64,000 nt of DNA, taken from assembly GCA_030647485.1 (NCBI GenBank), contig JAUSJT010000001.1:12947-76946 (forward strand), in the 5' to 3' direction. The DNA is from a bacterium (GTDB lineage Bacteria > Patescibacteriota > Minisyncoccia > Minisyncoccales > UBA10102). The stretch's first letter is position 1. Every line of letters begins with the position of its first letter. The notes below the pieces were generated by a model. The model saw nothing but the letters and a program-made list of their open reading frames with translations. It was not told the DNA's origin and made no database searches. The position numbers and the translations under genes are program-made. Below, piece after piece: positions 7,278-58,088 of this stretch.

Positions 7278-7783
7278 TATGCTTTAGCTACGATCATGGA
7301 TAACCCTCGTGGTTCTCTGGTCAGTGTTTTTTCTATCTTTATTGAAAGTATGGGCTGGAGAATCTCAATGAATTTTGCCATTTTTTCTCTGGCATATCCC
7401 TCCAGGGCTTTTTCTCTCCCGTGTAGGGGAAGGGTAATGCGTATGCGGTCTCCTCGTCCCAAGAATTTCTCTGCTTGGCGTACTCTCGTTTCAATGTCGT
7501 GAGGGGATATGTTAAAGGAGAGCCGCACCTCTTTCAATTCTCCGCCTTGGCGCTTTTGGACTTTTCGGTCCTTTTTTCCTTGTTGATACAAGAACTTTCC
7601 GTAGTCTCCCAGTTTGCATATAGGGGGATCTACCTTTTCTGACACCTGGATAACGTCGAGCTTGCGTTCTTTTGCAACTAAAAGTGCATCTGCAAGCGCC
7701 ATAACCCCAAGCTGTTTTCCTGCCTCGTCAATGAGGCGGACTTGGGAGGCTTTAATTTGGGTATTGATGAATACTCTATTCAA
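7277..7783 (-). CDS. infC: Translation initiation factor IF-3 (non-ATG start, TTG at 7783-7781)
   Basis: IKASQVRLIDEAGKQLGVM N-domain and C-domain LKEVRLSFNISPHDIETR. Operon context fits. Confidence 0.9.
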   Translation of the reverse strand: MNRVFINTQIKASQVRLIDEAGKQLGVMALADALLVAKERKLDVIQVSEKVDPPICKLGDYGKFLYQQGKKDRKVQKRQGGELKEVRLSFNISPHDIETRVRQAEKFLGRGDRIRITLPLHGREKALEGYAREKMAKFIEILQPILSIKIEKTLTREPRGLSMIVAKA

Positions 7784-7820
7784 TGTGTGGTGATTTGAAA
7801 AATTTTATGTAATGAAATTT

Positions 7821-7906
7821 TCAGTTTCCCCCGTGTAGGAAAACAGCGAGCGAAGCGAGCGTTAGAAACCGTGGGTTTCTAAAAGAGGGGGGTCGGGGGA
7901 AACTGT
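7821..7906 (-). promoter_or_regulatory. Large stem-enclosed structure between the tmRNA 3' end and infC (trailer/terminator or infC-operon leader)
   Basis: 12-bp inverted repeat CAGTTTCCCCCG (7821-7832) / CGGGGGAAACTG (7895-7906). It encloses an AGAAACC-GTG-GGTTTCT hairpin and a tandem GCGAGCGA repeat. Confidence 0.35.
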
Positions 7907-8749: not shown

Positions 8750-10486
8750 ATGATCAAGGAAGAAATTAAAAATCTCGTGCGACAAGCTTGTCTGAAGTTA
8801 GGTTTTCCCGTTGAAGAAATTGTGCTCGAACATCCAGAAAACGTGGAACACGGTGATTATTCAACAAACGTTGCTTTGGTTTTGGCAAAACAGCTCGGTA
8901 AAAAACCTCGCGAAGTAGCAGAAAACATAGCAAAAACTATAAACTACAAACTAAGAACTGTAAACTCTATAGAAAAGGTTGAGGTTGCGGGCCCCGGATT
9001 CATCAATTTTTTTCTGTCGAAAGAGTATTTCTTTGACGTTCTTTCTTCTATTCTCAAGAAGAAGGGAAAATATGGTGCAGGCTCCGAAAAGAAAAAGATC
9101 ATTGTAGAATATTCAAGTCCTAATATCGCAAAGCCCTTTGGCATCGGCCATCTTCGCTCAACCCTTATTGGCCAGGCAATCTATAATCTCTATACATTCT
9201 TAGGATATAAGACTATTGGCATTAACTACCCGGGAGACTGGGGGACTCCTCATGGGAAGATTTTGTACCAGTTGAAAGAAAAACTTTTGAAAGGGAAAAC
9301 CGAAAAAGAGAAAAAAGAAATATTAGATAAAATCACTGTCCAGGATTTAGAATCTCTATACGTAGCATTCCACCAGAACACGACTCTCCAAATGGAAGAA
9401 GGGGCACGACTCTGGTTTAAGAAGCTAGAACAAAAAGATACAGAAGCACGAAGCCTTTGGGAGAAGATGAGAGAGGTGAGTTTTAGAGAATTTGAAAGGA
9501 TTTATAGTCTTCTAAATGTGAAGATCGATCATGTTATTGGAGAAAGCTTCTTTGAAGACAAGATGGAGGTTGTGGTGGAGGACTTTAAGAAGAAGGGGCT
9601 TGCACAAGAAAGCCAGGGAGCCTTGATTGTTTCTTTCCCTAATGAAATTCTTCCTCCCGCAATGCTTTTGAAATCAGATGGAGCAACTACATACTTCACA
9701 AGAGACTTGGCGAATATGGAGTACAGAATCTCAAAGTGGAAGCCAGACGCTATTGTTATTGAAACGGGAGTAGAGCAAACCTTACATTTTCAGCAGGTAT
9801 TCCTTGCTTCAAAGCTCATTGGCTACGCAAAAGATGAAGAATTGGTCCATGCCTTTCATGGGTTGTATAGAACAAAAGAAGGAAAATTCTCCACAAGGAA
9901 GGGCCAGACCATTCATTTGGAAGATGTGTTAAGAGAAGCTATAAAAAAAGCCCATGAGATTATTGAGCAATCAGAAACTGTGCGCGGATTGAGTGAGCAG
10001 GAGAAAGCAGAAGTTGCAAAAGCAGTAGGGATCGGAGGAATCAAGTACAATGATCTTTCCCAGCATCCTTCAGGGGATATCGTGTTTGACTGGGGAAAGA
10101 TTCTGAACTTGAAAGGGAATTCAGCTCCCTACCTTCAGTACACGTATGCTAGATGCAAGAGTATCCTCCGCAAGTCCAAACTTAATCCCATTAAGTTTAA
10201 ACTTAATGGAGTTAAGTCATCCCCAGAGGAGATGGCGTTGCTTCGGCTGCTGTATCGATTTGAAGAGGTGGTGCAAGAAGCAGCAGAAAAGTTTTCTCCA
10301 AATCTCGTCTGTAATTTTGTGTTTGATCTTGCTCAACGGTATAACCTGTTTTACAACACTAATCCTGTGTTGAAGGCAGAAACCAAAGAATTAAAAGACT
10401 TTCGTTTGCTACTCACTGCCGCTGTTGCGCAGATTATTAAGAATGGTTTATCCCTTTTGGGTATTGCTGCCCCTGAAAGAATGTGA
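8750..10486 (+). CDS. argS: Arginyl-tRNA synthetase
   Basis: 578 aa. HGDYSTNVAL add-1 domain, class I HIGH-like SPNIAKPFGIGHLRS, and a C-terminal DALR anticodon-binding region. Confidence 0.95.
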   Translation: MIKEEIKNLVRQACLKLGFPVEEIVLEHPENVEHGDYSTNVALVLAKQLGKKPREVAENIAKTINYKLRTVNSIEKVEVAGPGFINFFLSKEYFFDVLSSILKKKGKYGAGSEKKKIIVEYSSPNIAKPFGIGHLRSTLIGQAIYNLYTFLGYKTIGINYPGDWGTPHGKILYQLKEKLLKGKTEKEKKEILDKITVQDLESLYVAFHQNTTLQMEEGARLWFKKLEQKDTEARSLWEKMREVSFREFERIYSLLNVKIDHVIGESFFEDKMEVVVEDFKKKGLAQESQGALIVSFPNEILPPAMLLKSDGATTYFTRDLANMEYRISKWKPDAIVIETGVEQTLHFQQVFLASKLIGYAKDEELVHAFHGLYRTKEGKFSTRKGQTIHLEDVLREAIKKAHEIIEQSETVRGLSEQEKAEVAKAVGIGGIKYNDLSQHPSGDIVFDWGKILNLKGNSAPYLQYTYARCKSILRKSKLNPIKFKLNGVKSSPEEMALLRLLYRFEEVVQEAAEKFSPNLVCNFVFDLAQRYNLFYNTNPVLKAETKELKDFRLLLTAAVAQIIKNGLSLLGIAAPERM

Positions 10487-10677
10487 TAGAATAAAAGTAT
10501 GACCAAATCACCATGCTGCTAACAAATACGTTAAAAACCTGGGCAAGCTTTGCTTCGAGTGTTGTACAGACCTGACGAGAGGATAGGTTTTATGTTTTGC
10601 CAATAATATTGAAACCTGCCCTCTCGGCAGGTTTTAAGTTGCTCTTTATAAGCCGAGAAGAAGGAGTTGTGAATACT

Positions 10678-10942: not shown

Positions 10943-13900
10943 ATGGAGATAAATTTTCCGAAACTTGAAGAAGAAGTTTTAGAGCGCTGGAAAAAGGAAA
11001 AAGCGTTTGAAAGATCAGTTTCTCGTAGAAAGACGGGCAAGCGTTTTGTGTTTTATGAGGGTCCTCCTACTGCAAACGGAAAACCTGGTATTCATCACGT
11101 GCTTTCTCGGGCTTTTAAGGATGTGATACTTCGCTACAAGACGATGAGGGGTTTTTTTGTTGAGAGAAGGGCTGGATGGGATACTCATGGGCTTCCCGTG
11201 GAGCTTCAAATTGAAAAGAAGCTTGGGTTAAAATCAAAGAAAGACATTGAGAAGTACGGAATTGCGCAATTCAACAAAGAGTGCAAGCAATCGGTATGGG
11301 AGTACAAGAAAGAGTGGGAAAACTTAACTGAACGCATGGGGTTTTGGATTGATCTTAAAGATCCCTACGTTACGTATGAGACTTCGTATATTGAAACTTT
11401 GTGGCGGATTATACAGAAATTCTGGCAGAAGGGTTTGTTGTACAAAGGACATAAGGTGATTTTGTATTGTTCACGATGCGGAACTTCTTTGTCTTCACAC
11501 GAGGTGGCACAGGGGTATAAGACCGTTGAAGACACTTCTATATACGTGAAGTTTAAGTTAAAGCCAGGGCAGAGGATAGGTGATTGGGCAACAGATGATT
11601 CCACCTATATCCTTTCTTGGACCACAACTCCCTGGACTTTGCCTGGCAATGTTGCCTTAGCAGTGGGAGAGAAAATCCAGTACGTTCGTGTCCAGCCCAA
11701 GGACATGAATGAAACATACATTCTTGCTAAAGATTTAGTTCGTACAGTTTTTAAGGAGTTTGATGGAGAAGAAGTTAGTTCTTTTAGTGGGAAAGACTTG
11801 ATTGATTTGTCGTATGAACAACTTTTTCCTATACTATCTCTTCGCAACGAGAAATCGCATAAAATCTATGCCGCAGATTTTGTTACAACAACAGACGGCA
11901 CCGGAGTTGTGCATACTGCGGTCATGTACGGGGAGGATGACTACAATCTTGGGGTGAAGGTTGGCCTGCCTCAGCATCACACCGTTACAGAAACTGGCGC
12001 GTTCACTCAAGAGATACCAGGAGGGCTTGCGGGGTTGCCCGTCAGAGTAAAAGAAACAGACGAAAAGATATTTGCATACCTCAAGGAGCATAATATGTTT
12101 CTTGCGACTTTAACGTATTCTCATGAGTATCCTTTCTGTTGGAGATGCTCCACTCCTCTATTGTACTACGCTAAAGACAGCTGGTTTGTGAATATGCAGA
12201 AAGTGAAGCAGGCCTTGATTGCGAATAATAAAAAGATTAATTGGGTCCCCTCTCATCTCAAAGAAGGGAGAATGGGAGAGTGGCTGCGAGAGGTGAAAGA
12301 CTGGGCGTTTTCCCGCGAGCGGTATTGGGGGACTCCATTGCCGATATGGGAATGTAAAAAGTGCGAGCACAGAGAGGTCATAGGTTCCCTTGAGGAGTTG
12401 CGAGAGAAAACCAGATCTTTGAACGTCTACTATTTGCTGCGCCATGGATACTCGGAAAAGCAGAGATTACACATTTCTTCTTCTTGGCCAGAGCCAGTGC
12501 CCATGCCCTTGCTCGCTCAAGGCGTGAAAGAAGCAGAAAAAGCAGCCCGCGCATTAAAGAAGAAAAATATTGATATCATTATCTCTTCAGATCTGCTTCG
12601 CACCAAGCAAACCGCTGAAATTGTAGGGAAAGAGCTTGGCGTTAAGGTTGTTTATGACCCGCTTATTCGAGAAGAAGACGCAGGCATATTTAATGGGAAA
12701 AACATAGAGGAAACAGGCAAGTTTTATCGGAAACCAGGAGAAACGCCCCTTGAGCACTATCTAAGACGATTTGAGATTGCTCGTCCCGAAGGAGAAAGCT
12801 GGCTTGATGTGCAGAAAAGAGCGCATCAGTTCATGAAGAATCTGGAAGAGAAGTATAGGGGCAAGTCAATCCTTATTGTAAGCCATTCTTTGGTTCTTGA
12901 ATTAATTGAGTCCACTATGCTTGGGCTTTCTCGGATTGAATTTGAAAAACGATGGATCAAGACCCATATAAAAAGTGGAGAATGGCGAAAGATCGCTTAT
13001 GCCGCTTTTCCTTACAATGAGAATATGGAAGTTGATCTTCATCGTCCTTACATTGATAATGTTGTGTTTTCATGCCCCGCATGCAAGACAGGCACTATGC
13101 AACGAGTGAAAGAGGTTGCTGACGTATGGTATGATTCTGGAGCCATGCCATTCGCTCAGGCCCACTGGCCTTTCGCGAAAAATCCGAAATCCGAAATCCG
13201 AAATCCGAAACCACCCATACTTTTTCCTGCAGACTATATCGTTGAGGGCATAGACCAGACCAGGGGATGGTTCTACACACTTCTTGCGGTTTCCACACTG
13301 CTTGGATTTAGCGCTCCATACAAAAACGTTATCTCTTTCAGCCATGTTTTGGACGAGAAGGGAGAAAAGATGTCCAAGTCCAAGGACAACGTGGTTGACC
13401 CCTGGGATATGATAAAAAAGTACGGCATTGACGCGGTGCGCTGGTACTTCTTTACCATGAACAATCCTGGGGATCCCAAACTTTTTTCTGAAAAGGATAT
13501 TCAGGAAGTTCTTCGCAAGTTCATACTCACCCTCTGGAATTCTTTTGTGTTCTTGAAAACCTATTGTCCTAAGCTTCGCTTAGGAACTCCTAAGCGAAGC
13601 TTAAGCAGCAACGTCTTAGACGAATGGATTTTATCGCGGCTTGTTGGGACAACTAAAGAAATAACGGAAAAGATGGACACGTATGACGTGACAGGAGCAG
13701 GAAGGAGTTTGGAGAGTTTTGTTATCAACGATCTTTCTCTTTGGTATATTAGGAGATCAAGGACACGATTCCAGAATCCCGAAAGTGTGAAAGATTTTAA
13801 AGAAGCATCGACAACGCTTTCTTTTGTCCTCTTGCAAACATCTAAACTTGCAGCTCCTTTTGTTCCCTTTCTTAGTGAACATATCCATGATGCTTTGCAA

Positions 13901-14494
13901 GCAAAGGGAAGCGTGCACTGGGAAGATTGGCCCTTCGACTCGCCCGCCAAAGGCGGCCTCGCTCAGGACAGGCCTAAGCAAGACAAAAAACTTGAAGCAG
14001 AAATGGCGCTAGTCCGTGATCTTGTCACGAAAGCGCTTGCAGAACGCGCAAAAGCGCAGCTCAAGGTGCGACAGCCCCTGTCCATCCTTATGATCAAGGG
14101 TAGTGGCAAGGAAATCCGAAAAGACCTTTTGACATTACTCAAAGACGAAATAAATGTGAAAGTGGTTGTGTTTGATAAAAATCTCAAGAATGAGGTTGAA
14201 TTGGATACAGCACTGACCCCCCAGCTAAAAGAAGAGGGCCAGGTACGGGAGATATTGAGAAGCATCCAGGGAATGAGAAAGGAAGCAGGATACAAGCCGC
14301 AGAATAAGATTGTTCTTTGGTATTCTGGAGATCAAGAGCTTTGCGCCCTCATTTCAAAAAACGCAGTTATTTTAAAAAAGAGCGTGGGCGCAAAAACCAT
14401 AAAACAAGGCATTCCAGAAAACGGAAAATCTGAAAAAGGAAAACAGATTTTATTCGAGGGCAAATCCCTGTGGCTTAGTATTCGCAAAATTTGA
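10943..14494 (+). CDS. ileS: Isoleucyl-tRNA synthetase (type 2-like) with an inserted histidine-phosphatase (PGAM-family) domain
   Basis: 1183 aa. HIGH region PPTANGKPGIHHVLSR, WAFSRERYWGTPLPIW, DLHRPYID, DVWYDSG, and KMSKS (13369-13383 region, protein KMSKSKDN). Insert at about aa 493-696 has RHG, SSDLLRTKQTAE, GESWLDVQKR and VSHS motifs. Confidence 0.95.
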   Translation: MEINFPKLEEEVLERWKKEKAFERSVSRRKTGKRFVFYEGPPTANGKPGIHHVLSRAFKDVILRYKTMRGFFVERRAGWDTHGLPVELQIEKKLGLKSKKDIEKYGIAQFNKECKQSVWEYKKEWENLTERMGFWIDLKDPYVTYETSYIETLWRIIQKFWQKGLLYKGHKVILYCSRCGTSLSSHEVAQGYKTVEDTSIYVKFKLKPGQRIGDWATDDSTYILSWTTTPWTLPGNVALAVGEKIQYVRVQPKDMNETYILAKDLVRTVFKEFDGEEVSSFSGKDLIDLSYEQLFPILSLRNEKSHKIYAADFVTTTDGTGVVHTAVMYGEDDYNLGVKVGLPQHHTVTETGAFTQEIPGGLAGLPVRVKETDEKIFAYLKEHNMFLATLTYSHEYPFCWRCSTPLLYYAKDSWFVNMQKVKQALIANNKKINWVPSHLKEGRMGEWLREVKDWAFSRERYWGTPLPIWECKKCEHREVIGSLEELREKTRSLNVYYLLRHGYSEKQRLHISSSWPEPVPMPLLAQGVKEAEKAARALKKKNIDIIISSDLLRTKQTAEIVGKELGVKVVYDPLIREEDAGIFNGKNIEETGKFYRKPGETPLEHYLRRFEIARPEGESWLDVQKRAHQFMKNLEEKYRGKSILIVSHSLVLELIESTMLGLSRIEFEKRWIKTHIKSGEWRKIAYAAFPYNENMEVDLHRPYIDNVVFSCPACKTGTMQRVKEVADVWYDSGAMPFAQAHWPFAKNPKSEIRNPKPPILFPADYIVEGIDQTRGWFYTLLAVSTLLGFSAPYKNVISFSHVLDEKGEKMSKSKDNVVDPWDMIKKYGIDAVRWYFFTMNNPGDPKLFSEKDIQEVLRKFILTLWNSFVFLKTYCPKLRLGTPKRSLSSNVLDEWILSRLVGTTKEITEKMDTYDVTGAGRSLESFVINDLSLWYIRRSRTRFQNPESVKDFKEASTTLSFVLLQTSKLAAPFVPFLSEHIHDALQAKGSVHWEDWPFDSPAKGGLAQDRPKQDKKLEAEMALVRDLVTKALAERAKAQLKVRQPLSILMIKGSGKEIRKDLLTLLKDEINVKVVVFDKNLKNEVELDTALTPQLKEEGQVREILRSIQGMRKEAGYKPQNKIVLWYSGDQELCALISKNAVILKKSVGAKTIKQGIPENGKSEKGKQILFEGKSLWLSIRKI
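12419..13030 (+). other. Histidine phosphatase superfamily (branch 1, PGAM-like) domain embedded in IleRS
   Basis: YYLLRHGYSE (RHG at 12440-12448), IIISSDLLRTKQTAEIV, PEGESWLDVQKRAHQF, ILIVSHSLVLE (His codon at 12884-12886). Flanked on both sides by canonical IleRS sequence in the same frame. Confidence 0.75.
13180..13207 (+). repeat. Tandem heptamer AAATCCG x4 inside ileS
   Basis: Read directly from the sequence. Encodes KNPKSEIRNPKP in a surface-loop position just after the conserved AQAHWPF. Confidence 0.9.
13568..13605 (+). repeat. 38-nt double-hairpin palindromic element (CCTAAGC type) in frame in ileS
   Basis: CCTAAGCTTCGCTTAGG-AACT-CCTAAGCGAAGCTTAAG encodes PKLRLGTPKRSLS. 34/38 identical to the element in pth (47901-47940). 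Confidence 0.85.
13929..13974 (+). repeat. TTCGACT...TCGCTCAGG element (expanded copy) in frame in ileS
   Basis: GGCCCTTCGACT-CGCCCGCCAAAGGCGGCC-TCGCTCAGGACAGGCC encodes PFDSPAKGGLAQDRP. Shares its ends with the copies at 39619 and 55170 and is followed by another CCTAAGC. Confidence 0.7.
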
Positions 14495-16332: not shown

Positions 16333-17980
16333 ATTTACTCTTGTTTTAGCAGCAATTGCCTTGATCCTAGCTGGTCTGGGTGTTTGGTTCTGGCAGAAAA
16401 ACACCTATTCTACCGAGAATCTCAAGCTTGAGCTTTTGGCTCCCCAATCAGCTAGCATGGGAGAAGAGATTACATATACTATACGATACAAGAATAACGG
16501 GGATGCCAGACTCGAAAACGCCATGCTTATCTTTGAATACCCTTCAGGCTCCATGCCTTCTCAGGGAACGAATGGAAGATTAACACAATCCATAGAGGAT
16601 ATTTATCCCGGTCAGGAACAGAATCTTTCTTTCAAAGCCCGTCTTTTTGGTAAAGAGGGCGAGCTCAAAGAGGCAAAAGTATTGATGCAGTATACGCCAA
16701 AGAATCTGAATGCAAAGTTTGAATCAAATACGAGCGTAACCACAGGTATCTCTCAGGTTCCCCTGAACTTTGAGCTTGATCTTCCGTCTCGCACAGAAAG
16801 CTCCCAGGGCTTTACCTTTGATCTGAATTATTTCTCTAATTCAGAGTATCCGCTTTCAGATTTGAGAATTAAAATAGAGTATCCTGAAGGGTTTAAATTC
16901 CAGAGCGCCTCGCCAGTCCCTATCGGAGAAAACGAATGGAAGGTAGGCTTGCTGAACAAGGCTTCAGGAGGAAGAATTTCGGTCAAAGGCACTTTACAGG
17001 GAGAATCCCAGGAGGTAAAGATTTTTCGCGCAATCTTAGGGTCTTGGAAAGACGGAAAGTTCACCGTGTTCAAGGAAGCAGCCAAGGGTATTGAGATAAC
17101 CAATCTTAAGCTCTTGATTTCCCAGACCGTCAACGGATCTCCCAGCTATACCGCTTCTCCTGGAGATGCGCTCCATTACGTGCTTTCTTTTAAGAACGTA
17201 GATGAGAAGAGTCTGGAGAATCTGTTTCTGATTGTGAACCTTGAGGGCCGTCCCTTTGATTTGGCAAGCGTGAAGGCAGAGCAGGGAAAGTTTAAAGAAG
17301 GGGATACCTCCATTGTGTGGGAAGCAAAGGACGTTTCAAGGTTAAGATTCTTGGGAAAGGGGGAAGAAGGGAAAGTGGAGTTTTGGGTGAACGTGAAAGA
17401 AAATTGGGAAGTGTTCAGCTCACAAGACGAGAACTTCACGCTCCGCGACAAAGTCATTCTGTCTGACACAAAAGAAGAGTTTGAATTAAAGGTGAATTCC
17501 CGTCTTGTTGTAGAGCAGAGTACTCATTATCAAGACGAGGTGTTTGGCAATGCAGGCCCTCTTCCTCCGCAGGCAGGCGCTCAAACAACTTATACTGTCA
17601 TATGGCAGGTAAAGAACGTGTACAATGATGCAGAAAACGTGACGGTGCGAGCAACACTCCCTCAGGAGGTGAGTCTGACAGGAAAGATTTTTCCTGATAA
17701 CGCGCCCCTAACTCTAGATTCTGCTTCTCGCGAGATTGTGTGGAAAGTAGGAGACGTTCCAGCTGGGACAGGAACCTTTGACCCAATAACTTCCATTGCA
17801 TTCCAGGTTGCGTTTTTGCCCACCGCTTCTCAAAAGGGGAGTGTTGCACAGATTATAGGAGAAGCGAGAGTTCAGGGAAGCGATGTGTTTTCAGAACAAA
17901 CCCTTGCAGGTTCAAGCAAGCCGCTTACTACTAACCTTCCCGACGACCCTTCGGCCCAGGGAAAGGGCATTGTCCAATGA
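16319..17980 (+). CDS. Membrane-anchored extracytoplasmic protein with DUF11-like repeat (beta-sandwich) domains
   Basis: N-terminal TM helix (FTLVLAAIALILAGLGVWFW). Repeated motifs of the form ...Y.I.YKN.GDA.LENA / YVLSFKNVDEKSLENL / YTVIWQVKNVYNDAENV. Confidence 0.65.
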   Translation: MRLGRFTLVLAAIALILAGLGVWFWQKNTYSTENLKLELLAPQSASMGEEITYTIRYKNNGDARLENAMLIFEYPSGSMPSQGTNGRLTQSIEDIYPGQEQNLSFKARLFGKEGELKEAKVLMQYTPKNLNAKFESNTSVTTGISQVPLNFELDLPSRTESSQGFTFDLNYFSNSEYPLSDLRIKIEYPEGFKFQSASPVPIGENEWKVGLLNKASGGRISVKGTLQGESQEVKIFRAILGSWKDGKFTVFKEAAKGIEITNLKLLISQTVNGSPSYTASPGDALHYVLSFKNVDEKSLENLFLIVNLEGRPFDLASVKAEQGKFKEGDTSIVWEAKDVSRLRFLGKGEEGKVEFWVNVKENWEVFSSQDENFTLRDKVILSDTKEEFELKVNSRLVVEQSTHYQDEVFGNAGPLPPQAGAQTTYTVIWQVKNVYNDAENVTVRATLPQEVSLTGKIFPDNAPLTLDSASREIVWKVGDVPAGTGTFDPITSIAFQVAFLPTASQKGSVAQIIGEARVQGSDVFSEQTLAGSSKPLTTNLPDDPSAQGKGIVQ

Positions 17981-19320
17981 AAAAAAATTCAACCGTTGCG
18001 AATACTGATTTAATGCAGAACATCACTTCGCTTGCCAAGCGCAGGGGATTTATCTTTGCGGGATCTGATATCTACGGAGGGCTTGCCAATTCTTGGGATT
18101 ACGGCCCTTTGGGCGTTGAGTTAAAAAACAACATCAAGCAGGAGTGGTGGAGGCGTTTTGTCCAACAGAGAGCCGATGTAGTTGGCATTGACGCTGCTTT
18201 GTTGATGAATCCAAAAGTTTGGGAGGCGTCAGGACACCTTGCAAGCTTTACAGATCCCCTAGTTGAGTGCAAAACATGCCATGCCAGGCTTAGGGAAGAC
18301 CAACTTATTGACCGTACCTGCCTCAACTGCAAGGGTAAGGATTTTACTCCAACTAGGCAATTTAATATGATGCTCAAGACGTATCTTGGGCCTTCGGAAG
18401 AAAGCGCAAACACCGTATATTTTCGTCCTGAAACAGCGCAGGCAATGTTCGTGAACTTTAAGAATATTCTTGATACCAATCGCCCCAAGCTTCCTTTTGG
18501 CATAGCCCAGCAAGGAAAGGCGTTTCGCAACGAGATTACTCCTGGCAACTTTGTGTTCCGCATGCGGGAATTTGAGCAAATGGAGATTGAGTACTTTGTA
18601 AAAGAACGAGAATGGGAGAAGTATTTTGAACATTGGCTAGGAGAAATGAAGCAATGGTTGAAAGACCTCGGCGTTTCAGAAAAGAAGCTTCATTATGTTG
18701 ATATCCCAGACGGAGAGCGGGCCCACTATTCAAAGAGAACAGTGGATATTGAGTATGAATATCCTTTTGGTCAAAAGGAGTTGTATGGTTTGGCATACAG
18801 GGGAGATTTTGATCTCAAGAACCACATGCAAGCGAGTGGGCAAGATTTAAGGTACACGGATACTGAAACGCAAGAGAAATTCCTTCCTCACGTCATTGAA
18901 CCAACATGGGGCGTAGACCGGTCTGTATTGGTAGCTATGCTAGAAGCTTACCATGAAGAGGACGCACCCACGGCGGAAGAGGGCGAGAGCGCCAAACGTG
19001 TTGTGATGAAATTCCCTGCATGGTTAGCTCCGGTGAAGGTTGCGATTCTCCCGCTTTCCAAAAAAGAAGAATTGAGCAAAGTTGCAAAACCAATCTTTGA
19101 AACTCTGTCAAAACAATTCGTGTGCGAGTATGATGAGACCCAAAGCATTGGCAAAAGATATCGCAGACAGGACGAGATAGGGACGCCCCTTTGCATAACA
19201 GTAGATTTTGAAACTCTGCAGGATAATGCCGTCACTATTCGAGACAGAGATACAATGAAACAGGAAAGAATACTAGTGAAAGATCTAGCAGGCGAGGCCA
19301 CAAAGCGACTCCATGTTTGA
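17977..19320 (+). CDS. glyQS: Glycyl-tRNA synthetase (class II, dimeric GlyQS type)
   Basis: LAKRRGFIFAGSDIYGGLANSWDYGPLGVELKNNIK, FRNEITPGNFVFRMREFEQMEIEYF. Confidence 0.95.
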   Translation: MKKNSTVANTDLMQNITSLAKRRGFIFAGSDIYGGLANSWDYGPLGVELKNNIKQEWWRRFVQQRADVVGIDAALLMNPKVWEASGHLASFTDPLVECKTCHARLREDQLIDRTCLNCKGKDFTPTRQFNMMLKTYLGPSEESANTVYFRPETAQAMFVNFKNILDTNRPKLPFGIAQQGKAFRNEITPGNFVFRMREFEQMEIEYFVKEREWEKYFEHWLGEMKQWLKDLGVSEKKLHYVDIPDGERAHYSKRTVDIEYEYPFGQKELYGLAYRGDFDLKNHMQASGQDLRYTDTETQEKFLPHVIEPTWGVDRSVLVAMLEAYHEEDAPTAEEGESAKRVVMKFPAWLAPVKVAILPLSKKEELSKVAKPIFETLSKQFVCEYDETQSIGKRYRRQDEIGTPLCITVDFETLQDNAVTIRDRDTMKQERILVKDLAGEATKRLHV

Positions 19321-20581: not shown

Positions 20582-21610
20582 ATGAATAGTGAAAAGGTAT
20601 TGGATATATCCTGGGGGACTATTGTTAAAATCAGCATCACCGCGCTCGTCGTCTACATGCTCTTTTTAACCAGGGGCATTTTTGTATGGGTGCTGTTTGG
20701 CATAATTATTTCTGTTTTATTTGACCCTATTATTGATTTTCTTCAGAAAAGAAGAATCCCGCGCGTCATTAGTACGTTTGCCTTATACCTTGCGGTCTTT
20801 GGCGTAATCGCGTTTATTATCTATTCTGCGGCTCCTGTATTTATTAATGAAATACAGAGATTCTCCCAGTTGTTCCCACGATATTTTGAAACCGTTTCCC
20901 CAATCTTTAAGGGATTGGGCGTAGCCGCGTTTTCCGACATCCAGAGTTTTATTGACGCGGCTTCAGGAGGTATTGAGAAGATAGCTTCAAATGTATTTTC
21001 CGCCCTGTTTTCCATTTTCGGGGGCATATTTGCAACATTCTTCGTGCTTTCCATTGCCATATTCCTTTCCCTGGAAGACAAGGGCATTGAGAGAGCCATT
21101 AGCGTTTTGTTCCCTAAAAAGTATGAGGCATTTGCCTTAGATCTTTGGGCCAAGTCTCAAAAAAAGGTTTCCGCGTGGTTTGCGTCTAGGTTACTCGCCT
21201 CCATATTCGTTGCGGTTGCTTCGTACATTGTTCTTATTCTTTTTAATGCAAAGTACCCGTTCTCGCTGGGGTTAATATCTGGAGTATTAAACTTTATCCC
21301 CATAGTGGGGCCGTTAATCGCAGGAGGGCTCGTTGCTATGATTGTTGCTTTAGACTCGGCGATGAAAGCGGTGTTTGTTATCCTCGCCTTTGTGTTGATC
21401 CAGCAGATTGAGAACAACATTCTTACTCCTATTCTCACCAAGAAGCTTATAGGTCTTTCTCCTGTGGTCGTTTTGATTGCCTTGGCAATAGGAGGAGAAC
21501 TGTGGGGCATGGTAGGCGCAATCCTTGCCATTCCCATTGCGGGTATTCTCTTTGAATTTCTCCGTGATTTCCTCAAGAAACGCAAAGAAGAAAAGACCGA
21601 AACGTCATAA
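20582..21610 (+). CDS. AI-2E family transporter (PerM/UPF0118)
   Basis: 342 aa, multi-TM. Conserved LNFIPIVGPLIAG and PVVVLIALAIGGELWG segments. Confidence 0.85.
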   Translation: MNSEKVLDISWGTIVKISITALVVYMLFLTRGIFVWVLFGIIISVLFDPIIDFLQKRRIPRVISTFALYLAVFGVIAFIIYSAAPVFINEIQRFSQLFPRYFETVSPIFKGLGVAAFSDIQSFIDAASGGIEKIASNVFSALFSIFGGIFATFFVLSIAIFLSLEDKGIERAISVLFPKKYEAFALDLWAKSQKKVSAWFASRLLASIFVAVASYIVLILFNAKYPFSLGLISGVLNFIPIVGPLIAGGLVAMIVALDSAMKAVFVILAFVLIQQIENNILTPILTKKLIGLSPVVVLIALAIGGELWGMVGAILAIPIAGILFEFLRDFLKKRKEEKTETS

Positions 21611-21615
21611 TTTTC

Positions 21616-21689
21616 GAACTATGTATTTTCTTTGCGCTTTACCCCACCTGCTGGCGGGGCCCTACGCGTCTGCAGAAAATACATAGTTC
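21616..21689 (+). repeat. Copy A of a 72-74-nt hairpin repeat (conserved 52-nt core, variable complementary outer arms)
   Basis: Perfect 16-bp outer stem GAACTATGTATTTTCT / AGAAAATACATAGTTC around core TTGCGCTTTACCCCACCTGCTGGCGGGGCCCTACGCGTCTGC. Ends 11 nt before the rsmI ATG. Confidence 0.85.
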
Positions 21690-21700
21690 TCAATTTCATT

Positions 21701-22372
21701 ATGGGCACATTGTATATTGTTGCTACCCCCATTGGAAATTTAGGTGATATAACCCTAAGAGCGCTAGAAACGCTCAAAGAGGTTGCTTTGATTTTGTGTG
21801 AAGATACCAGGGTGACGAAGAAGCTTTTGGTACATTACAAAATAGAAAAGCCTTTGTTAAGCTATCATCAGCATAGCAAGGAAGACAAAAGACAGGAGAT
21901 CCTTGGTTTGCTTTTACAGGGCAAGAATCTTGCATTGGTGAGCGATGCTGGAACTCCTAGTATTTCAGACCCTGGGAATGAGTTGGTGGAGTTTCTTCTG
22001 GGAAAGGAGCCAGATATGCGTATTATTCCCATACCAGGCTCCTCTGCAGTTGCAACGCTTGCGAGCGTGGCGGGCATTCCCATGGATAAGTTTGTATTCC
22101 TCGGGTATCCTCCCCACAAGAAAGGAAGAAAGAAATTTTTTGAGCAAGTCGCGGGAAATCAGTACCCTGTTATTTTTTATGAGTCTCCCCATCGTATCTT
22201 GAAGACGTTGCAGGAATTGGAAGCGTTAGGTAGTAATCTGAATGTTGTCATAGGAAGAGAACTGACAAAACAATTCGAAACAATCTATCGCGGAACTATT
22301 GCTTCTATCTTAGCAAGATTAAAGAAAGAGCAGATCAGGGGTGAGTTCTCGGTGGCAGTATGGAAAGGTTGA
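21701..22372 (+). CDS. rsmI: 16S rRNA (cytidine1402-2'-O)-methyltransferase RsmI
   Basis: MGTLYIVATPIGNLGDITLRALETLK..LILCEDTR. The track ORF start at 21632 only translates the upstream repeat. Confidence 0.9.
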   Translation: MGTLYIVATPIGNLGDITLRALETLKEVALILCEDTRVTKKLLVHYKIEKPLLSYHQHSKEDKRQEILGLLLQGKNLALVSDAGTPSISDPGNELVEFLLGKEPDMRIIPIPGSSAVATLASVAGIPMDKFVFLGYPPHKKGRKKFFEQVAGNQYPVIFYESPHRILKTLQELEALGSNLNVVIGRELTKQFETIYRGTIASILARLKKEQIRGEFSVAVWKG

Positions 22373-26696: not shown

Positions 26697-26739
26697 AACT
26701 TAGAGTGAAACTTAACTCGGTTAAGTTTAGTAATCTTTT

Positions 26740-26761
26740 TAGCATTGCCATGGCAATGCTA
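26740..26761. repeat. 22-nt perfect palindrome TAGCATTGCCATGGCAATGCTA
   Basis: Read directly from the sequence. The core CATTGCCATGGCA(A/G)TG recurs at 47603-47618. An AAACTTAAC-TCG-GTTAAGTTT hairpin lies at 26708-26728. Confidence 0.8.
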
Positions 26762-26845
26762 GAGAGATGGGGTATTTGGGTTGATTTATGTTATATCATT
26801 TAGAATAGACAAAAAGAGGGAGATTGGGTACAATCAGATATCCAA

Positions 26846-36925: not shown

Positions 36926-37516
36926 ATGAAGGTTGTAGATATTCCCAGGGTTAGCGTTTTAGAAGCATTGAGTATTGCGGCAAAGGCACTCTCTCAAGGT
37001 AAGGTGCTTGTATGCCCTACAGATACTATCTATGGATTAATAGGAGACGCAACAAACGCAAAAGCGGTTGAGAAGATCTTTTGCATAAAACGCAGAAAAA
37101 AAGAAAAACCCCTTGGTATCTTTGTAAAAGACCTTGCCATGGCAAAGAAATTCGCCAAGATAACGAGAAAACAGGAGGCATTTTTAAAGAAAGCTTGGCC
37201 GGGAAAGGTGACGGCAGTGCTCCAAGTAAAAAAGAAGTTTCCTGAAGGGGTTGGAACACAAAAAACTATTGGTATAAGGGTGCCAAAGTATTCTTTTCTA
37301 GATCTCCTTTTTGAAAAGTTCCACCATGCTCTAGCGCAAACTTCGGTAAATATATCAGACACCCCACCCATAAAAAGGGTGAAAGATATGGTGAAGGTGT
37401 TTGGTAGACGAAAGTGGAAGCCAGACTTAATTTTTGATGCAGGAATACTTTCTTCTTCACGTCCCTCAAAAGTTATTGACATGACAATGGAGAAGAGAAA
37501 AATTCTACGAAAATGA
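36926..37516 (+). CDS. tsaC: L-threonylcarbamoyladenylate synthase (TsaC/YrdC family)
   Basis: VLVCPTDTIYGLIGDATNAKAVEKIFCIKRRKKEKPL. Confidence 0.85.
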   Translation: MKVVDIPRVSVLEALSIAAKALSQGKVLVCPTDTIYGLIGDATNAKAVEKIFCIKRRKKEKPLGIFVKDLAMAKKFAKITRKQEAFLKKAWPGKVTAVLQVKKKFPEGVGTQKTIGIRVPKYSFLDLLFEKFHHALAQTSVNISDTPPIKRVKDMVKVFGRRKWKPDLIFDAGILSSSRPSKVIDMTMEKRKILRK

Positions 37517-38841
37517 AAACACCACTACAAGCATCAGACCCCAAGGTGTATGAGCTTATAGAAGCAGAGCTTCAGCGCAGGAAAAAGGGCCTGGAAATGA
37601 TTCCTTCCGAGAACCATACATCTCCTGCGGTTCTTGAGGCTCTAGGATCCATACTTACCGATAAATATTCTGAAGGATATCCTAGTAGGAGATACTACGG
37701 AGGGAATGAGTTTATAGACAAAGTAGAAAACCTTGCCATAGAACGGGCCAAGCAGGCATTTGGAGTGCCGTATGCCAATGTACAGCCGTATTCTGGATCT
37801 CCAGCAAATTTAGCGGTTCACGTCGCAGTATGCAAGCCAGGGGATGTGGTTATGGGGTTAGACCTAACTCACGGCGGGCATTTAACACATGGGTCTAAGG
37901 TAAGCGTTACGGGGCAGTACTACAAAAGCGTGCAGTATCATGTTACTCCCGAAGGGCGTATTGATATTGAAGAGGTAAGAAGGCTGGCAACAGAACACAA
38001 TCCAAGATTACTATGGGTTGGGTATACCGCATATCCTCGTGAATTCCCGTTTGAAGAATTCTCAAAAATAGCAGATGGGGTTGGAGCGTATCTTGCAGCC
38101 GACATCTCGCATATCGCAGGGTTGGTGTTAGGAGGAAGCCATGCAAGCCCAGTTCCTTTTGCGCATATCGTTACCACAACAACGCACAAGACCCTTCGGG
38201 GTCCACGAGGTGCTATTGTCATGGTAACAGAAAAAGGATTGAAGAAAAATCCTGAACTTGGAGAGAAAATAGACAAAGCGATATTCCCTGGTTTGCAGGG
38301 GGGGCCGCACAACCACCAAACCGCTGCAATCGCAGTAGCTCTTGCTGAAGCTATGAAGCCTGAGTTCAAGGATTATGCGTATCAGGTAGTGAGTAATGCA
38401 AAGGCGTTGGCCCAAGGACTTATGGAGAACGGCTTAAAGTTGGTATCTAACGGGACAGACACTCATCTCATGCTTATTGATTTAACTCCCTATGGAAAAG
38501 GAATGGGAGTGTTTGCAGAGAAAGCATTGGATCTTGCAGGCATAACACTCAACAAGAACACCATACCAGGGGATCCTTCTTCTCCTTTTTATCCAAGCGG
38601 CATACGGCTCGGCACGCCAGCCATTACAACCCGGGGCATGAAAGAAAAAGAAATGGACATGGTGGCTAGCTGGATAATCCAGGTTATAGGAGAAATCAAA
38701 GCGTATCAGCTTCCAGAATCAAAAGATGAACGCAAGCCATACATTGCTTCTTTTGAGAAAGACATGGCAAAGAACCCTGCTGTTCTAAAGGTAAGGGGTG
38801 AAATAGAGAAACTGTGTGAGGGTTTTCCCCTGCCTTACTGA
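37513..38841 (+). CDS. glyA: Serine hydroxymethyltransferase
   Basis: LEMIPSENHTSPAVLEA and TTTTHKTLRGPRG (PLP lysine). Confidence 0.95.
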   Translation: MKTPLQASDPKVYELIEAELQRRKKGLEMIPSENHTSPAVLEALGSILTDKYSEGYPSRRYYGGNEFIDKVENLAIERAKQAFGVPYANVQPYSGSPANLAVHVAVCKPGDVVMGLDLTHGGHLTHGSKVSVTGQYYKSVQYHVTPEGRIDIEEVRRLATEHNPRLLWVGYTAYPREFPFEEFSKIADGVGAYLAADISHIAGLVLGGSHASPVPFAHIVTTTTHKTLRGPRGAIVMVTEKGLKKNPELGEKIDKAIFPGLQGGPHNHQTAAIAVALAEAMKPEFKDYAYQVVSNAKALAQGLMENGLKLVSNGTDTHLMLIDLTPYGKGMGVFAEKALDLAGITLNKNTIPGDPSSPFYPSGIRLGTPAITTRGMKEKEMDMVASWIIQVIGEIKAYQLPESKDERKPYIASFEKDMAKNPAVLKVRGEIEKLCEGFPLPY

Positions 38842-38849
38842 CATGCTAC

Positions 38850-38921
38850 GACTATTTAATTTTCTTTGCGCTTTACCCCACTGCGGTGGGGCCCTACGCG
38901 TCTTCAGAAAATCAAATAGTC
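38850..38921 (+). repeat. Copy B of the 72-74-nt hairpin repeat
   Basis: Arms GACTATTTAATTTTCT / AGAAAATCAAATAGTC (15 of 16 bp). Core is identical to copy C. Ends 13 nt before the folD ATG. Confidence 0.85.
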
Positions 38922-38934
38922 TTCGCATACTTTT

Positions 38935-39792
38935 ATGAAGATTTTAGATGGGGCAAAATTAGCAGACAGAATTTTGAAGGATCTCAAAAAAAAGAAGCGG
39001 AGCAAGGATCTCTCTCTTGCGGTGGTTCAGGTTGGAAACAACCAGGCTTCTCTAAAGTATATTGCAGAAAAGGAAAAAGTGGCAAAGGACCTTGGCATTG
39101 GATTTCGTCTGATGCTGTATCCTTCAACGGTTTCCCAAGCGACACTGATGAAAGCGGTAGGGAAGATAGGGAAAGATAAAAAGATATCTGGCATGATTGT
39201 GCAACTTCCTTTGCCAAAGCACCTTGATACACAGCCCATTCTGGACGCGATTCCCCAGTATAAAGATGTTGATGTGCTTTCTTCTTTGTCCTTTGCGGAA
39301 TTTGTCTTTGGAACTTTTCCCGTATTGCCTCCGACCGTTGCAGCAATTTCTCTGCTCCTCAAGCAAGTAAAAAAGAAACTTGAAGGGACGCAGGTCGCCG
39401 TGGTGGGGGCAGGACGGTTGGTTGGGTTACCTGTTTCTTTGTGGCTGGCGCAGCAGGGGGCTATTGTTTCTTTGATACAAAAGGGGACAAGAAACGCCTC
39501 TCAGTTTATTAAAAAAGCAGATATTGTGATTTCTGGAGTTGGGAAGGCCGGGTTGATAATAGGTTCAATGATAAAAAGAGGGGCCGTAGTTATTGATGCC
39601 GGCACTTCGGTGGAATCTGGCCCTTCGACTTCGCTCAGGGTCAAGAAAATACATGGTGATGTGGATTTCAAAAGCGTTTCAAAGAAAGCAGGGTATCTTT
39701 CTCCTGTTCCCGGAGGCGTGGGGCCCTTAACCGTCGTCTGTCTTTTTCAGAATCTTTTTGAGTTGACAAGCAGGCGAGATCGTGCTATATAA
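38935..39792 (+). CDS. folD: Bifunctional methylenetetrahydrofolate dehydrogenase/cyclohydrolase
   Basis: MKILDGAKLA, VVGAGRLVGLPV, SPVPGGVGPLTV. Confidence 0.95.
   Translation: MKILDGAKLADRILKDLKKKKRSKDLSLAVVQVGNNQASLKYIAEKEKVAKDLGIGFRLMLYPSTVSQATLMKAVGKIGKDKKISGMIVQLPLPKHLDTQPILDAIPQYKDVDVLSSLSFAEFVFGTFPVLPPTVAAISLLLKQVKKKLEGTQVAVVGAGRLVGLPVSLWLAQQGAIVSLIQKGTRNASQFIKKADIVISGVGKAGLIIGSMIKRGAVVIDAGTSVESGPSTSLRVKKIHGDVDFKSVSKKAGYLSPVPGGVGPLTVVCLFQNLFELTSRRDRAI
39619..39643 (+). repeat. TTCGACTTCGCTCAGG element in frame in folD
   Basis: GGCCCTTCGACTTCGCTCAGGGTCA encodes GPSTSLRV, an extra loop relative to E. coli FolD (recalled alignment RLENGKVVGDV). Confidence 0.75.
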
Positions 39793-40564: not shown

Positions 40565-40603
40565 GCCCCGTGTTGGTTTACCAACACGGGGCGTTTTCTT
40601 TTC
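40565..40603 (+). terminator. Rho-independent terminator of the DGR target gene
   Basis: 12-bp stem GCCCCGTGTTGG / CCAACACGGGGC, loop TTTA, then GTTTTCTTTTCG. Confidence 0.8.
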
Positions 40604-43177: not shown

Positions 43178-43266
43178 TGGAACGTAAGAACGTAACATTT
43201 GCTTCGCAAATTGTACGTTCAACGTTCCAACAGCGTTTAAATTTTCTTTGAAAATTTATTACGCTG

Positions 43267-43349
43267 TGCCTGGGGTGGGAGTCGAACCCACACGAGCTTG
43301 CGCTCAAAGGTTTTTGAGACCTTCGCGTAAACCATTCCGCCACCCAGGC
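43267..43349 (-). tRNA. tRNA-Leu (anticodon CAA), CCA not encoded
   Basis: Acceptor GCCTGGG/CCCAGGC, anticodon arm AAGGT-CTCAAAA-ACCTT, long variable arm GAGC-GCAA-GCTC, T arm GTGGG-TTCGACT-CCCAC. Confidence 0.9.
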
Positions 43350-47499: not shown

Positions 47500-47618
47500 C
47501 CGTACTCTTGTATAACAAAAACCCCCATATTTTCATAGAGGGCGTCTTGTTTCAATATGCATCAAGATTCTGCTGCAGCAAGAATTTGAGTTATCTCTTT
47601 ATCATTGCCATGGCAGTG

Positions 47619-48173
47619 TTAAGAAGATAGTTTTGCAAGCGCTTGAATTGCGTTTTGCAAAGCAGATTGCAAAAGAGGGAGCTCTGATTTTTGAAAGGGC
47701 CTTAGTACAAACTCCTCAACATTTGCTGGTTTTCCCCTTTCTGGCTGAATGCCTATCCGTATTCTTATAAAGTCCTTTGTTCCAAGAGACTGAATAATGG
47801 AGCCTACGCCTTTGTGCCCCGCAGATCCCGATCCCTTTGAGACTTTTACTTTCCCAAGCGGTATGTCAATGTCATCATGGATTACCACGAGTTCTTGTCT
47901 GCCTAAGCTTAGCTTAGGAGTACCTAAGCTAAGCTTAGGCAGAAGCGCCTTTACGGCTTTGCCGGAGTTGTTCATAAACGTCTGGGGTTTCACTAGTACT
48001 ACCTTGGCGAGACCAAGGATCCCCTCGGAGATGAGAGATGAATGTTTTTTGGAAAGTTTGAAAGGTGGAAACTCATTGGCTTTTGCAAACTCATCCAACG
48101 CCATAAACCCCATATTATGTGGGGTATTATCATATTCTTTTCCCGGATTTCCGAGTCCTACAATTAGAAACAT
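47619..48173 (-). CDS. pth: Peptidyl-tRNA hydrolase
   Basis: MFLIVGLGNPGKEYDNTPHNMGF and GSGSAGHKGVGSI. I prefer the ATG at 48173. The track start (TTG, 48182) adds MNY. Confidence 0.9.
   Translation of the reverse strand: MFLIVGLGNPGKEYDNTPHNMGFMALDEFAKANEFPPFKLSKKHSSLISEGILGLAKVVLVKPQTFMNNSGKAVKALLPKLSLGTPKLSLGRQELVVIHDDIDIPLGKVKVSKGSGSAGHKGVGSIIQSLGTKDFIRIRIGIQPERGKPANVEEFVLRPFQKSELPLLQSALQNAIQALAKLSS
47901..47940 (-). repeat. 40-nt double-hairpin palindromic element (CCTAAGC type) in frame in pth
   Basis: GCCTAAGCTTAGCTTAGG-AGTA-CCTAAGCTAAGCTTAGGC is a perfect palindrome apart from the central 4 nt. It encodes PKLSLGTPKLSLG in a loop that is variable in Pth. Confidence 0.9.
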
Positions 48174-48180
48174 ATAGTTC

Positions 48181-48252
48181 AAACTCTATCTTTTCTTTGC
48201 GCTTTACCCCACTGCGGTGGGGCCCTACGCGTCTTCAGAAAAGCCAGAGTTT
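48181..48252 (+). repeat. Copy C of the 72-74-nt hairpin repeat
   Basis: Arms AAACTCTATCTTTTCT / AGAAAAGCCAGAGTTT (14 of 16 bp). Core is identical to copy B. Lies in the divergent pth/lepB spacer, in the same orientation as lepB. Confidence 0.85.
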
Positions 48253-48308
48253 TCACTATTATATCATTTATCTTGCAAAAAGATGAAATTCTGGTATACT
48301 GGCAAAGT

Positions 48309-50168: not shown

Positions 50169-50250
50169 TTTACGAATGTATCCGAATGCCCCGAATAATA
50201 AGTAGTATTTGTAGATTAGGATACGATTCGTAGATTCGGATTATACTCTT

Positions 50251-58048: not shown

Positions 58049-58088
58049 TATACATCAAACCATTGCTGCAGCAACAAATTGATGTATA
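58049..58088 (+). promoter_or_regulatory. Hairpin/operator-like repeat, copy 1 (upstream of the PaaX-like gene)
   Basis: 10-bp stem TATACATCAA / TTGATGTATA. The loop contains the 12-bp palindrome TTGCTGCAGCAA. 23 nt are identical to copy 2. Confidence 0.5.

Follow-up and report, generated by a model that had tools for sequence, protein, structure and literature searches.

A dispersed long-hairpin element of Parcubacteria resembling REP and Rickettsia palindromic elements

The DNA analyzed here is a 64,000-nucleotide stretch (the window) of contig JAUSJT010000001.1, from a bacterium of the patescibacterial lineage UBA10102. Amid its housekeeping genes lie three copies (A, B and C) of a palindromic element, all on the plus strand and 9–17 kb apart. 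The genes that flank these copies, named by Pfam, code for an AI-2E-family transporter, an rsmI-type methylase, serine hydroxymethyltransferase (SHMT), FolD, peptidyl-tRNA hydrolase (pth) and signal peptidase (lepB). Copies A and B take up nearly the whole spacer between co-directional genes, and copy C is located in a divergent spacer. A preliminary description of this sequence had placed three hairpins at 21616-21689, 38850-38921 and 48181-48252; both their sequences and their distances to the starts of rsmI, folD and lepB were as it had given them. Its estimate of the size of the element was too small, since the true extent is approximately 96–100 nt and includes an outer stem (P0) located beyond a 2x2 loop. 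Each half of the 52-nt core gave 3 exact matches in the window, and none of 100 shuffles contained any match to these half-patterns, even when 3 mismatches were allowed. Unfiltered scanning of the entire window with the covariance model showed no fourth copy. Our verdict is that these copies probably belong to a mobile-element family and are not gene leaders.

Additional copies were collected by the exact core pattern in species-representative genomes and then in metagenome contigs, giving 26 non-redundant copies (3 in the window and 23 others) at approximately 17 independent genomic sites. The hosts were Nealsonbacteria, Paceibacterota and metagenome-assembled genomes of the “Parcubacteria group”, which belong to the candidate phyla radiation (CPR), along with groundwater metagenomes. 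The metagenome contigs contributed 19 more loci, mostly from groundwater, and no copy was matched in viral contigs. Besides two chance matches, the species-representative scan returned one contig binned as an uncultured Methanosarcinales archaeon (CAZFPU010000242.1, locus L008). This was probably a mis-binned CPR contig because the MutY-like gene that holds its element is orthologous to that of L003/L022. As in the preliminary description, which could not match the element to a known RNA family, Rfam was of no help: at the gathering threshold the window and 20 loci yielded solely tRNAs and an L10 leader, and an E-value scan of copy A yielded chance-level matches only. A tRNA-Leu(CAA) gene at 43266-43349 on the minus strand was the sole Rfam or ARAGORN match in the window. 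Ribozymes and RNA 3D motifs (hammerhead, twister and k-turn) were compared by eye and rejected; copies B and C have CUGAAGA, a sequence reminiscent of a hammerhead box, but stem II is not followed by GAAA and there was no Rfam ribozyme match. A protein-database search with concatenated element-encoded peptides gave two PrmC matches only (E ~0.1). No account of such an element in CPR bacteria was found in the literature searched, and the family is apparently previously undescribed.

Each unit is ~80–100 bp long (about 96–100 nt for the full element) and forms one long imperfect hairpin with five stems, P0 to P4, and conserved internal loops. The outermost stem, P0, has 4–6 bp of site-specific sequence, was seen in most copies and often takes in a stop or start codon. 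It is separated by the 2x2 loop, which is a GA/GA tandem mismatch on the minus strand of the window, from P1, a stem of about 10 bp and variable sequence. On the same strand, P2 pairs UUUUC with GAAAA and is followed by an asymmetric loop; P0, P1 and P2 together make a helix of ~22 bp. P3 pairs (C)GCG(U) with GCGC(G) and includes one invariant U·G pair, and an invariant AGG/AAA loop lies between it and P4, an apical GC-rich hairpin of 7–9 bp with a 3–5-nt loop, GTAG at its 5' foot and a G·T pair in 12 copies. Conservation was highest in the center and lowest in the arms. Each site had a single hairpin, with no doublets at any locus. In ~20 of the 26 copies the flanks read as a near-constant TC...TC, or GA/GA when the opposite strand is read, and site-specific direct repeats were absent.

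The covariance model was built from 14 copies, after which all 26 were realigned. Standard pairs occupied 92.8% of cells, versus 35–56% when the 3' partners were slid by 1–3 columns, and both-sided changes were seen in 19 of 32 pairs. The covariation score was 0.511, versus 0.05–0.11 for slid controls and 0.164 for shuffles. An alignment fitted to a model somewhat favors the structure, and here the slid controls and independent minimum-free-energy folds agreed with it. Thus the pairing and covariation of the arms, already proposed from three copies, extended to the whole family, and the stems are held paired by compensatory change.

The preliminary description had taken the plus strand as the functional one. 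We found the opposite: all 26 copies fold better on the minus strand of the window, i.e., in the reverse complement, and the summed minimum free energy was -1323 kcal/mol for this strand versus -1052 kcal/mol for the plus strand. Among the model pairs of the minus strand, G·U outnumbered A·C by 99 to 11, with the reverse on the plus strand; when the two invariant G·U pairs were left out, the numbers were 47 and 11. Because copies are related by descent, changes were also grouped by lineage, and P1 and P2 then showed about 13–15 independent G·U events versus 2–3 A·C events, the former including PrmC copies whose mRNA is the opposite strand. The conserved loops are purine-rich on the minus strand (GA/GA and AGG/AAA) and form pyrimidine mismatches on the plus strand. 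Mutation bias did not explain the asymmetry between G·U and A·C pairs. The plus strand is G- and T-rich by skew, and the usual leading-strand bias, which is C-to-T, predicts the opposite sign. Selection on a cruciform was ruled out because a cruciform cannot favor one strand. With these two explanations set aside, the consistently better folding, the excess of G·U pairs and the purine-rich loops lead us to conclude that pairing has been selected in a single-stranded form of the minus strand.

Orientation was also constrained. At every locus that could be judged, the strand bearing the plus orientation of the element was also the one that holds most of the genes and shows positive GC skew; the window has 52 plus-strand and 10 minus-strand genes. 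MutY in L022 and pth beside copy C run in the opposite direction, and the element there keeps its chromosomal orientation; what the orientation tracks is therefore the inferred strand of replication, not the direction of transcription. With replication direction taken from skew, the well-folding strand would be the lagging-strand sequence, that is, the leading-strand template. The claim that the element is always just upstream of a plus-strand gene was true in the window and did not extend to other loci, where copies were found inside open reading frames (ORFs).

These intragenic copies were informative with regard to what is conserved. Orthologous PrmC genes of L009, L010, L012, L018 and L027, 55–82% identical, carry the element in frame between the N-terminal domain and the S-adenosylmethionine (SAM)-binding motif, where it forms a clean 29-aa insert relative to Thermotoga HemK (1sg9). 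In L012, whose PrmC is 55% identical to that of L010, the first half of the insert is read in another frame, and conservation therefore applies to the nucleotide sequence and its structure and not to the encoded peptide. Similarly, the MutY-like glycosylase genes of L003/L022 and L008 contain the element in frame on the opposite strand, in two different frames, so that their mRNA carries the well-folding orientation. Other in-frame copies were located in a ComF-like phosphoribosyltransferase (L017) and in the linker between the DNA_processg_A and winged-helix domains of DprA (L025). Considered together, copies inside ORFs occur in either orientation relative to the gene, and they show that the element is tolerated in flexible protein linkers as well as in intergenic spacers and is read through in frame. 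The core on the plus strand has no stop codon in any frame, and gene callers can consequently extend rsmI-type genes at the N-terminus. Two ORFs that run through the element in the window (21632-22372 and 38886-39179) were artefacts, as had been noted.

Most PrmC homologues have a linker of 17–25 residues at this site, some carry the element and some carry degenerate versions of it. PrmC in L034 (726-1499) and L035 (1501-2376) has the 3' arm only, AGAAAG-AGCAGTGC-TC-GCGCT, coding RKSSARA, which is an in-frame partial deletion of a once-filled site. The preliminary description had also listed a palindrome-targeting element among its candidates. An unfilled PrmC linker, in L036, has no palindrome at the site, although this was a weak test as L036 is a distant homologue; a version of this idea in which P0 is the pre-existing target was unsupported by the same linker and by L008, which is without P0. 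The CPR PrmC linker between PRPETE and DLxxGSG is also an insertion hot spot in its own right, with at least 4 other insert types of 20–45 aa in other lineages (P0126, P0130, P0132, P0135-P0137, P0164, P0165, P0180, P0204 and others). The insert of L037 PrmC is another palindrome, of ~100 nt, whose CCCTAC..TCTGCA module is shared with the element, and the insert of L038 PrmC also folds into a long hairpin.

Orthologous spacers of related genomes differed in occupancy. The window has copy B in its glyA-folD spacer; the same spacer has a degenerate copy (50 bits) in L028, whose FolD is 77% identical, has a different palindrome instead in L030 (FolD 79% identical), and is empty, with 16 nt, in L032, although L032 carries the element at pth-lepB. 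The latter spacer is filled by an orthologous copy in the window and in L020/L032, and the element is absent there in L028 and L030. At orthologous sites flanks were 57–64% identical and the outer stems only 45–55% identical yet still paired, and the core was 89–100% identical; the use of an exact pattern to collect copies accounts, as an ascertainment effect, for part of this conservation of the core. These comparisons show gain, degradation and loss of the element at orthologous sites. The palindrome of L030, a perfect one of 16 bp (CTTGCCCTCGGCAAG...), is present at 9944-9979 and again at 17054-17093, 7 kb apart (the same was seen in L031), and this genome thus has another palindromic repeat family. 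Besides, the pth-lepB spacer of L030 has a GC-rich hairpin that shares the 12-mer AGGGCCCCGCCC (17382-17393) with the element in opposite orientation, and that of L028 (about 18620-18650) has a hairpin, GGGGCCCTGCCC, similar but not identical to it. These spacer hairpins could be remnants, relatives or chance resemblances.

Copy C was examined with regard to transcription of the two genes on its sides. To its right, an extended -10 box for pth could be read from the sequence; it was missed by a consensus scan that needs both hexamers. A homologous TGcTATACT, likewise to the right of the element, was present in L032, and in the element-free spacer of L028 the -10 box is 6 nt from the pth ATG. 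Transcription from a box so placed should yield a pth mRNA whose 5' leader is nearly the whole of copy C, oriented so that it folds well. We infer that the pth mRNA was leaderless or nearly so until the insertion of copy C gave it a hairpin leader of ~90 nt. On the other side, a promoter-like site for lepB was detected by scan and is conserved in L028, L030 and L032; copy C is probably outside the lepB mRNA because this site lies downstream of it. Scans around the three copies showed no terminator-like site, and there was no T-run on either strand, in agreement with the earlier statement that the element cannot simply be a terminator. A canonical intrinsic terminator was observed elsewhere in the window, at 40565-40602 (GCCCCGTGTTGG-TTTA-CCAACACGGGGC then GTTTTCTTTT), and the genome thus uses ordinary terminators, which are unlike the element in form. 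To the right of copy A, a weak minus-strand promoter-like site (21738-21709) occurred at the chance rate (1.0 expected) and was not repeated at copy B or at copies in ORFs. The coordinates of these features are collected in Table 1.

Table 1. Positions of the three element copies in the window, their parts, neighboring gene boundaries and promoter-like sites.
Feature	Position	Strand	Remark
Copy A, full element	21602-21699	-	covariance-model match, 102.7 bits
Copy A, P1 arms	21616-21625 / 21680-21689	+	
Copy A, core	21626-21679	+	
Copy A, TC/TC loop	21614-21615 / 21690-21691	+	
Copy A, apex hairpin	21642-21659	+	
Copy A neighbor, AI-2E transporter gene	21608-21610		stop codon
Copy A neighbor, rsmI	21701		ATG
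Copy B, full element	38836-38931	-	covariance-model match, 79.3 bits
Copy B, P0	38843-38846 / 38925-38928		ATGC with GCAT
Copy B, P1 arms	38850-38859 / 38912-38921		
Copy B, core	38860-38911		
Copy B neighbor, SHMT gene	38839-38841		stop codon
Copy B neighbor, folD	38935		ATG
Copy C, full element	48167-48262	-	covariance-model match, 93.2 bits
Copy C, P0	48174-48178 / 48255-48259		ATAGT with ACTAT
Copy C, P1 arms	48181-48190 / 48243-48252		
Copy C, core	48191-48242		
Copy C neighbor, pth	48173-48171	-	start codon, abutted by the element; divergent pth/lepB spacer
Copy C neighbor, lepB	48309	+	ATG
REP-like apex, copy A	21642-21665	-	GTAG-G-CCCCGCC-AGCA-GGTGGGG: GTAG 1-2 nt 5' of 7-bp GC-rich hairpin, 4-nt loop
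REP-like apex, copy B	38876-38897	-	same module as copy A
REP-like apex, copy C	48207-48228	-	same module as copy A
pth extended -10 box	48258-48266	-	TGaTATAAT; right of copy C
lepB promoter-like site	48273-48300	+	TTGCAA-16-TATACT, TG before -10

Among known palindromic elements, repetitive extragenic palindromic (REP) sequences offered the closest comparison for the apex. REPs are defined by GT[AG]G located 0–2 nt 5' of a hairpin with a stem of 7–20 bp and a loop of 2–5 nt (PMC6006769), the stem being 5–13 in another account (PMC3733652). On the minus strand all 26 copies read GCGTAG-G-[CCCC...GGGG], and both the 7–9-bp stem and the 3–5-nt loop of P4 are within the REP range. Similar to GTAG REPs, the element is dispersed (3 copies per 64 kb and ~17 independent sites, with orthologous sites filled, empty or degenerate), located mostly just downstream of genes, in some cases intragenic and in frame in repair or recombination genes, variably present between relatives, and asymmetric between strands. 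REPs are found mainly downstream of ORFs, and intragenic in-frame REPs, many in repair genes, are documented (PMC6006769, PMC3733652). In contrast to REPs, which have units of 20–40 bp and often form inverted doublets (bacterial interspersed mosaic elements, BIMEs, or REPINs), the element is a single 96–100-nt hairpin with low copy number, in which 30+30 nt of additional conserved and covarying stems and loops (P2, P3 and their loops among them) surround the apex. Neither a replication-locked orientation nor a CPR host was mentioned for REPs in the literature and surveys consulted.

Rickettsia palindromic elements (RPEs), palindromes of 100–150 bp inserted in frame in unrelated genes (PMC10969869), were the second point of comparison. 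The element is a palindromic repeat of the same size class, inserted in frame at surface loops or linkers of unrelated conserved genes and also between genes, with orthologous insertions shared between species and decayed in some lineages; no dedicated transposase has been reported for RPEs or for CGTC-type REPs (PMC3733652). However, going by RPE descriptions, nothing indicates that the sequences are related, and the hosts are of another phylum. According to reports, RPEs encode a conserved peptide and bear a CGTC tag, whereas the peptide of the element is not conserved (L012 versus L010 and L003 versus L008 use different frames) and CGTC occurs in some copies only and not at the foot of the hairpin. 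Descriptions of RPEs in the sources consulted also mention neither a replication-linked orientation nor strand-specific pairing of the kind seen here.

Further systems share single features with the element. Integron attC sites are imperfect palindromes that sit just after ORFs, and their folded single strand is recognized by structure, not sequence; in both cases the relevant strand is antisense to ORFs (cassette ORFs for attC, most host genes for the element). In sedentary chromosomal integrons the recombining bottom strand is on the leading-strand template, a placement that limits folding, keeps arrays stable and is thought to limit excision (PMC5371416), and the folding strand of the element has this placement as well, going by skew. 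Unlike attC, the element has no RYYYAAC/GTTRRRY pair, just GAAC...GTTC followed by mismatched TC/TC, and a cassette array is lacking, as are an integrase and attI in the vicinity; its neighbors are housekeeping genes and some copies are in ORFs. It is short, non-coding, dispersed and bounded by terminal inverted repeats (the P1 arms), as are MITEs, the miniature transposable elements with inverted repeats, but its ends are the most variable part and its center the most conserved, the reverse of a MITE, in which the terminal repeats recognized by the transposase are conserved, and it lacks a variable target-site duplication. IS200/IS605 elements, which move as single-stranded DNA (ssDNA), are recognized by hairpins and have replication-tied orientation, have a theme in common with the element; their active strand is on the lagging-strand template, and the folding strand of the element, as inferred from skew, is the opposite one. 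Membership in retrons, diversity-generating retroelements (DGRs), attC sites and IS200/IS605 was rejected, each failing on a defining feature. Overall, behavior is REP/RPE-like and the apex is REP-like, and the architecture, CPR host, replication-locked orientation and strand-specific pairing are new to that kind.

We consider it probable, if by no means certain, that the element represents a family of short non-autonomous REP/RPE-like mobile palindromes of Parcubacteria that act as an ssDNA hairpin. The GTAG strand, folded as an ssDNA hairpin, would be the active form, and an enzyme specific for that strand would act on it in trans; a transposase of the RAYT (REP-associated tyrosine transposase) or HUH-Y1 type would be the obvious candidate. 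Enzymes of this type mobilize GTAG REPs, and their genes usually have REPs on their flanks. Surviving copies would have the GTAG strand on the leading-strand template; there it would be rarely single-stranded and copies would therefore be stable, in parallel with attC of sedentary integrons. Effects on neighboring genes, such as the leader that copy C may provide to pth mRNA, would be by-products. Several observations weigh against this explanation. With sequences of E. coli RAYT and of IS608 TnpA as tblastn queries, 345 kb gave no match to a RAYT/Y1 transposase below E=0.05, although this was a weak test. There was no variable target-site duplication, only the constant TC...TC; copy number (~3 per 64 kb) is low compared with most REP families; and a single 100-nt hairpin is neither a 20–40-bp REP nor a doublet. 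The folding strand is opposite to the active strand of IS200/IS605, so the analogy needs a survivorship argument. Besides, the core is identical across PrmC hosts that are just 55% identical, which would not be expected of a decaying fossil and suggests purifying selection, gene conversion or repeated homing instead.

The preliminary description had left open whether the element was an RNase III-type processing site, a protein-binding leader or a miniature mobile element. The last of these is the one we favor, and the first two belong to a broader alternative, a cis-acting mRNA element (including a 3'-end stabilizer) that separates or couples cistrons and may yield near-leaderless downstream mRNAs. 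Its placement would suit this role: most intergenic copies start 0–7 nt past a stop codon and end 5–25 nt before a start codon without a Shine-Dalgarno sequence, P0 often includes one of these codons, the P0–P2 helix has the length of ~22 bp, copy C would be in the pth 5' leader, and mRNA stability is known to be affected by REPs (PMC3733652). Yet four ORFs contain copies, in both orientations, that leave the reading frame open, and an mRNA cleaved at such a copy would be destroyed. The transcribed orientation varies by site while the chromosomal one is constant, G·U-compatible pairing and purine loops are on the strand antisense to mRNA at most sites (prmC included), and close relatives lack the element at the same spacers, all of which make this alternative unlikely. 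Another alternative, an intrinsic terminator or attenuator of the upstream gene, could account for a stable hairpin right after the stop codon at most intergenic sites, and we consider it close to excluded: there was no T-run on either strand and no terminator-like site in scans, the canonical terminators of the genome differ in form, copy C lacks a co-directional gene upstream, and further copies are located within ORFs.

The element might instead be a DNA signal of benefit to the host and linked to replication, with the hairpin on one template strand serving for priming or restart, fork pausing or chromosome organization. Orientation locked to the inferred leading strand at ~11 independent sites (two with the local gene opposite), one-strand pairing selection whatever the direction of transcription, and a core and pairing kept in prmC across hosts of only 55% identity would all be expected for such a signal. 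However, close relatives have orthologous sites that are empty, degenerate or partly deleted, spacing is irregular and some copies are in linkers of proteins. In other lineages the same PrmC linker is taken up by several palindromes, unrelated or distantly related, much like a tolerated selfish insertion, and we regard a host signal of this kind as rather improbable. Even less probable is a small RNA gene, transcribed independently from the minus strand, antisense to the flanking operons and with a conserved protein-binding core. It would explain the better folding of the minus strand and the G·U pairs, GA/GA tandem mismatch and AGG/AAA loop typical of structured RNA, and both the promoter-like site right of copy A and the transcription of copy C in minus orientation that its pth promoter would cause could be cited for it. 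But no minus-strand promoter or terminator is conserved in the flanks across copies, the prmC, comF and dprA copies have coding sequence at the would-be promoter, the match near copy A was at the chance rate, and Rfam gave no match. A variant of the ssDNA explanation, to which we also give little weight, is that the element is not mere selfish DNA: as an ssDNA hairpin of the lagging-strand sequence it would either spread as folded ssDNA, perhaps a complementary DNA (cDNA) copied from the sense transcript, that becomes part of the lagging strand during its synthesis, or serve as a host-adopted replication signal on the leading-strand template. If true, either version would explain together the replication-locked orientation, the selected pairing on the strand antisense to most host genes and the identical prmC core across 55%-identical hosts.

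The presence of a REP/RPE-like family in CPR bacteria has several implications. CPR/Patescibacteria are absent from surveys of REPs, RPEs and MITEs in the literature consulted, and the element shows that very small genomes also carry palindromic repeats, even inside such conserved proteins as PrmC, MutY, ComF and DprA. One PrmC linker is a hot spot with several insert families in different lineages, and in-frame copies give conserved proteins new peptide segments. With regard to annotation, the element causes spurious N-terminal extensions and unexplained inserts of 25–30 aa. How REP- and RPE-like elements move can be approached through two features of the element, its strand-specific pairing signal and its clean link to the replication strand.

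Additional repeats and mobile sequences were observed in the window and in related genomes. Other long site-specific intergenic hairpins in the window, at 10570-10632, 43178-43232 and 50161-50243 (z-scores -3 to -6), matched the covariance model weakly, as generic hairpins. The syntenic regions of relatives hold other selfish elements: GlmS of L032 (1-2090) contains an intein bearing a LAGLIDADG domain, and small free-standing GIY-YIG ORFs are located at 7596-7880 and 11852-12190 in L028/L029. A second family of perfect palindromes, CCTAAGC..GCTTAGG doublets, was found in window ORFs: one (47898-47943) is in a variable loop of pth and codes for LPKLSLGTPKLSLGR, a segment that differs in Pth of L028, L030 and L032, and the other (13570-13603) is inside a 1183-aa ORF (10943-14494). 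Short palindromes around CATTGCCATGGCAATG and CATTGCTGCAGCAA were located at 26733-26768, 37112-37167 and 47592-47629, and also at 58049-58088, 58650-58683 and 47562-47589; these may be operator-like sites or another repeat family.

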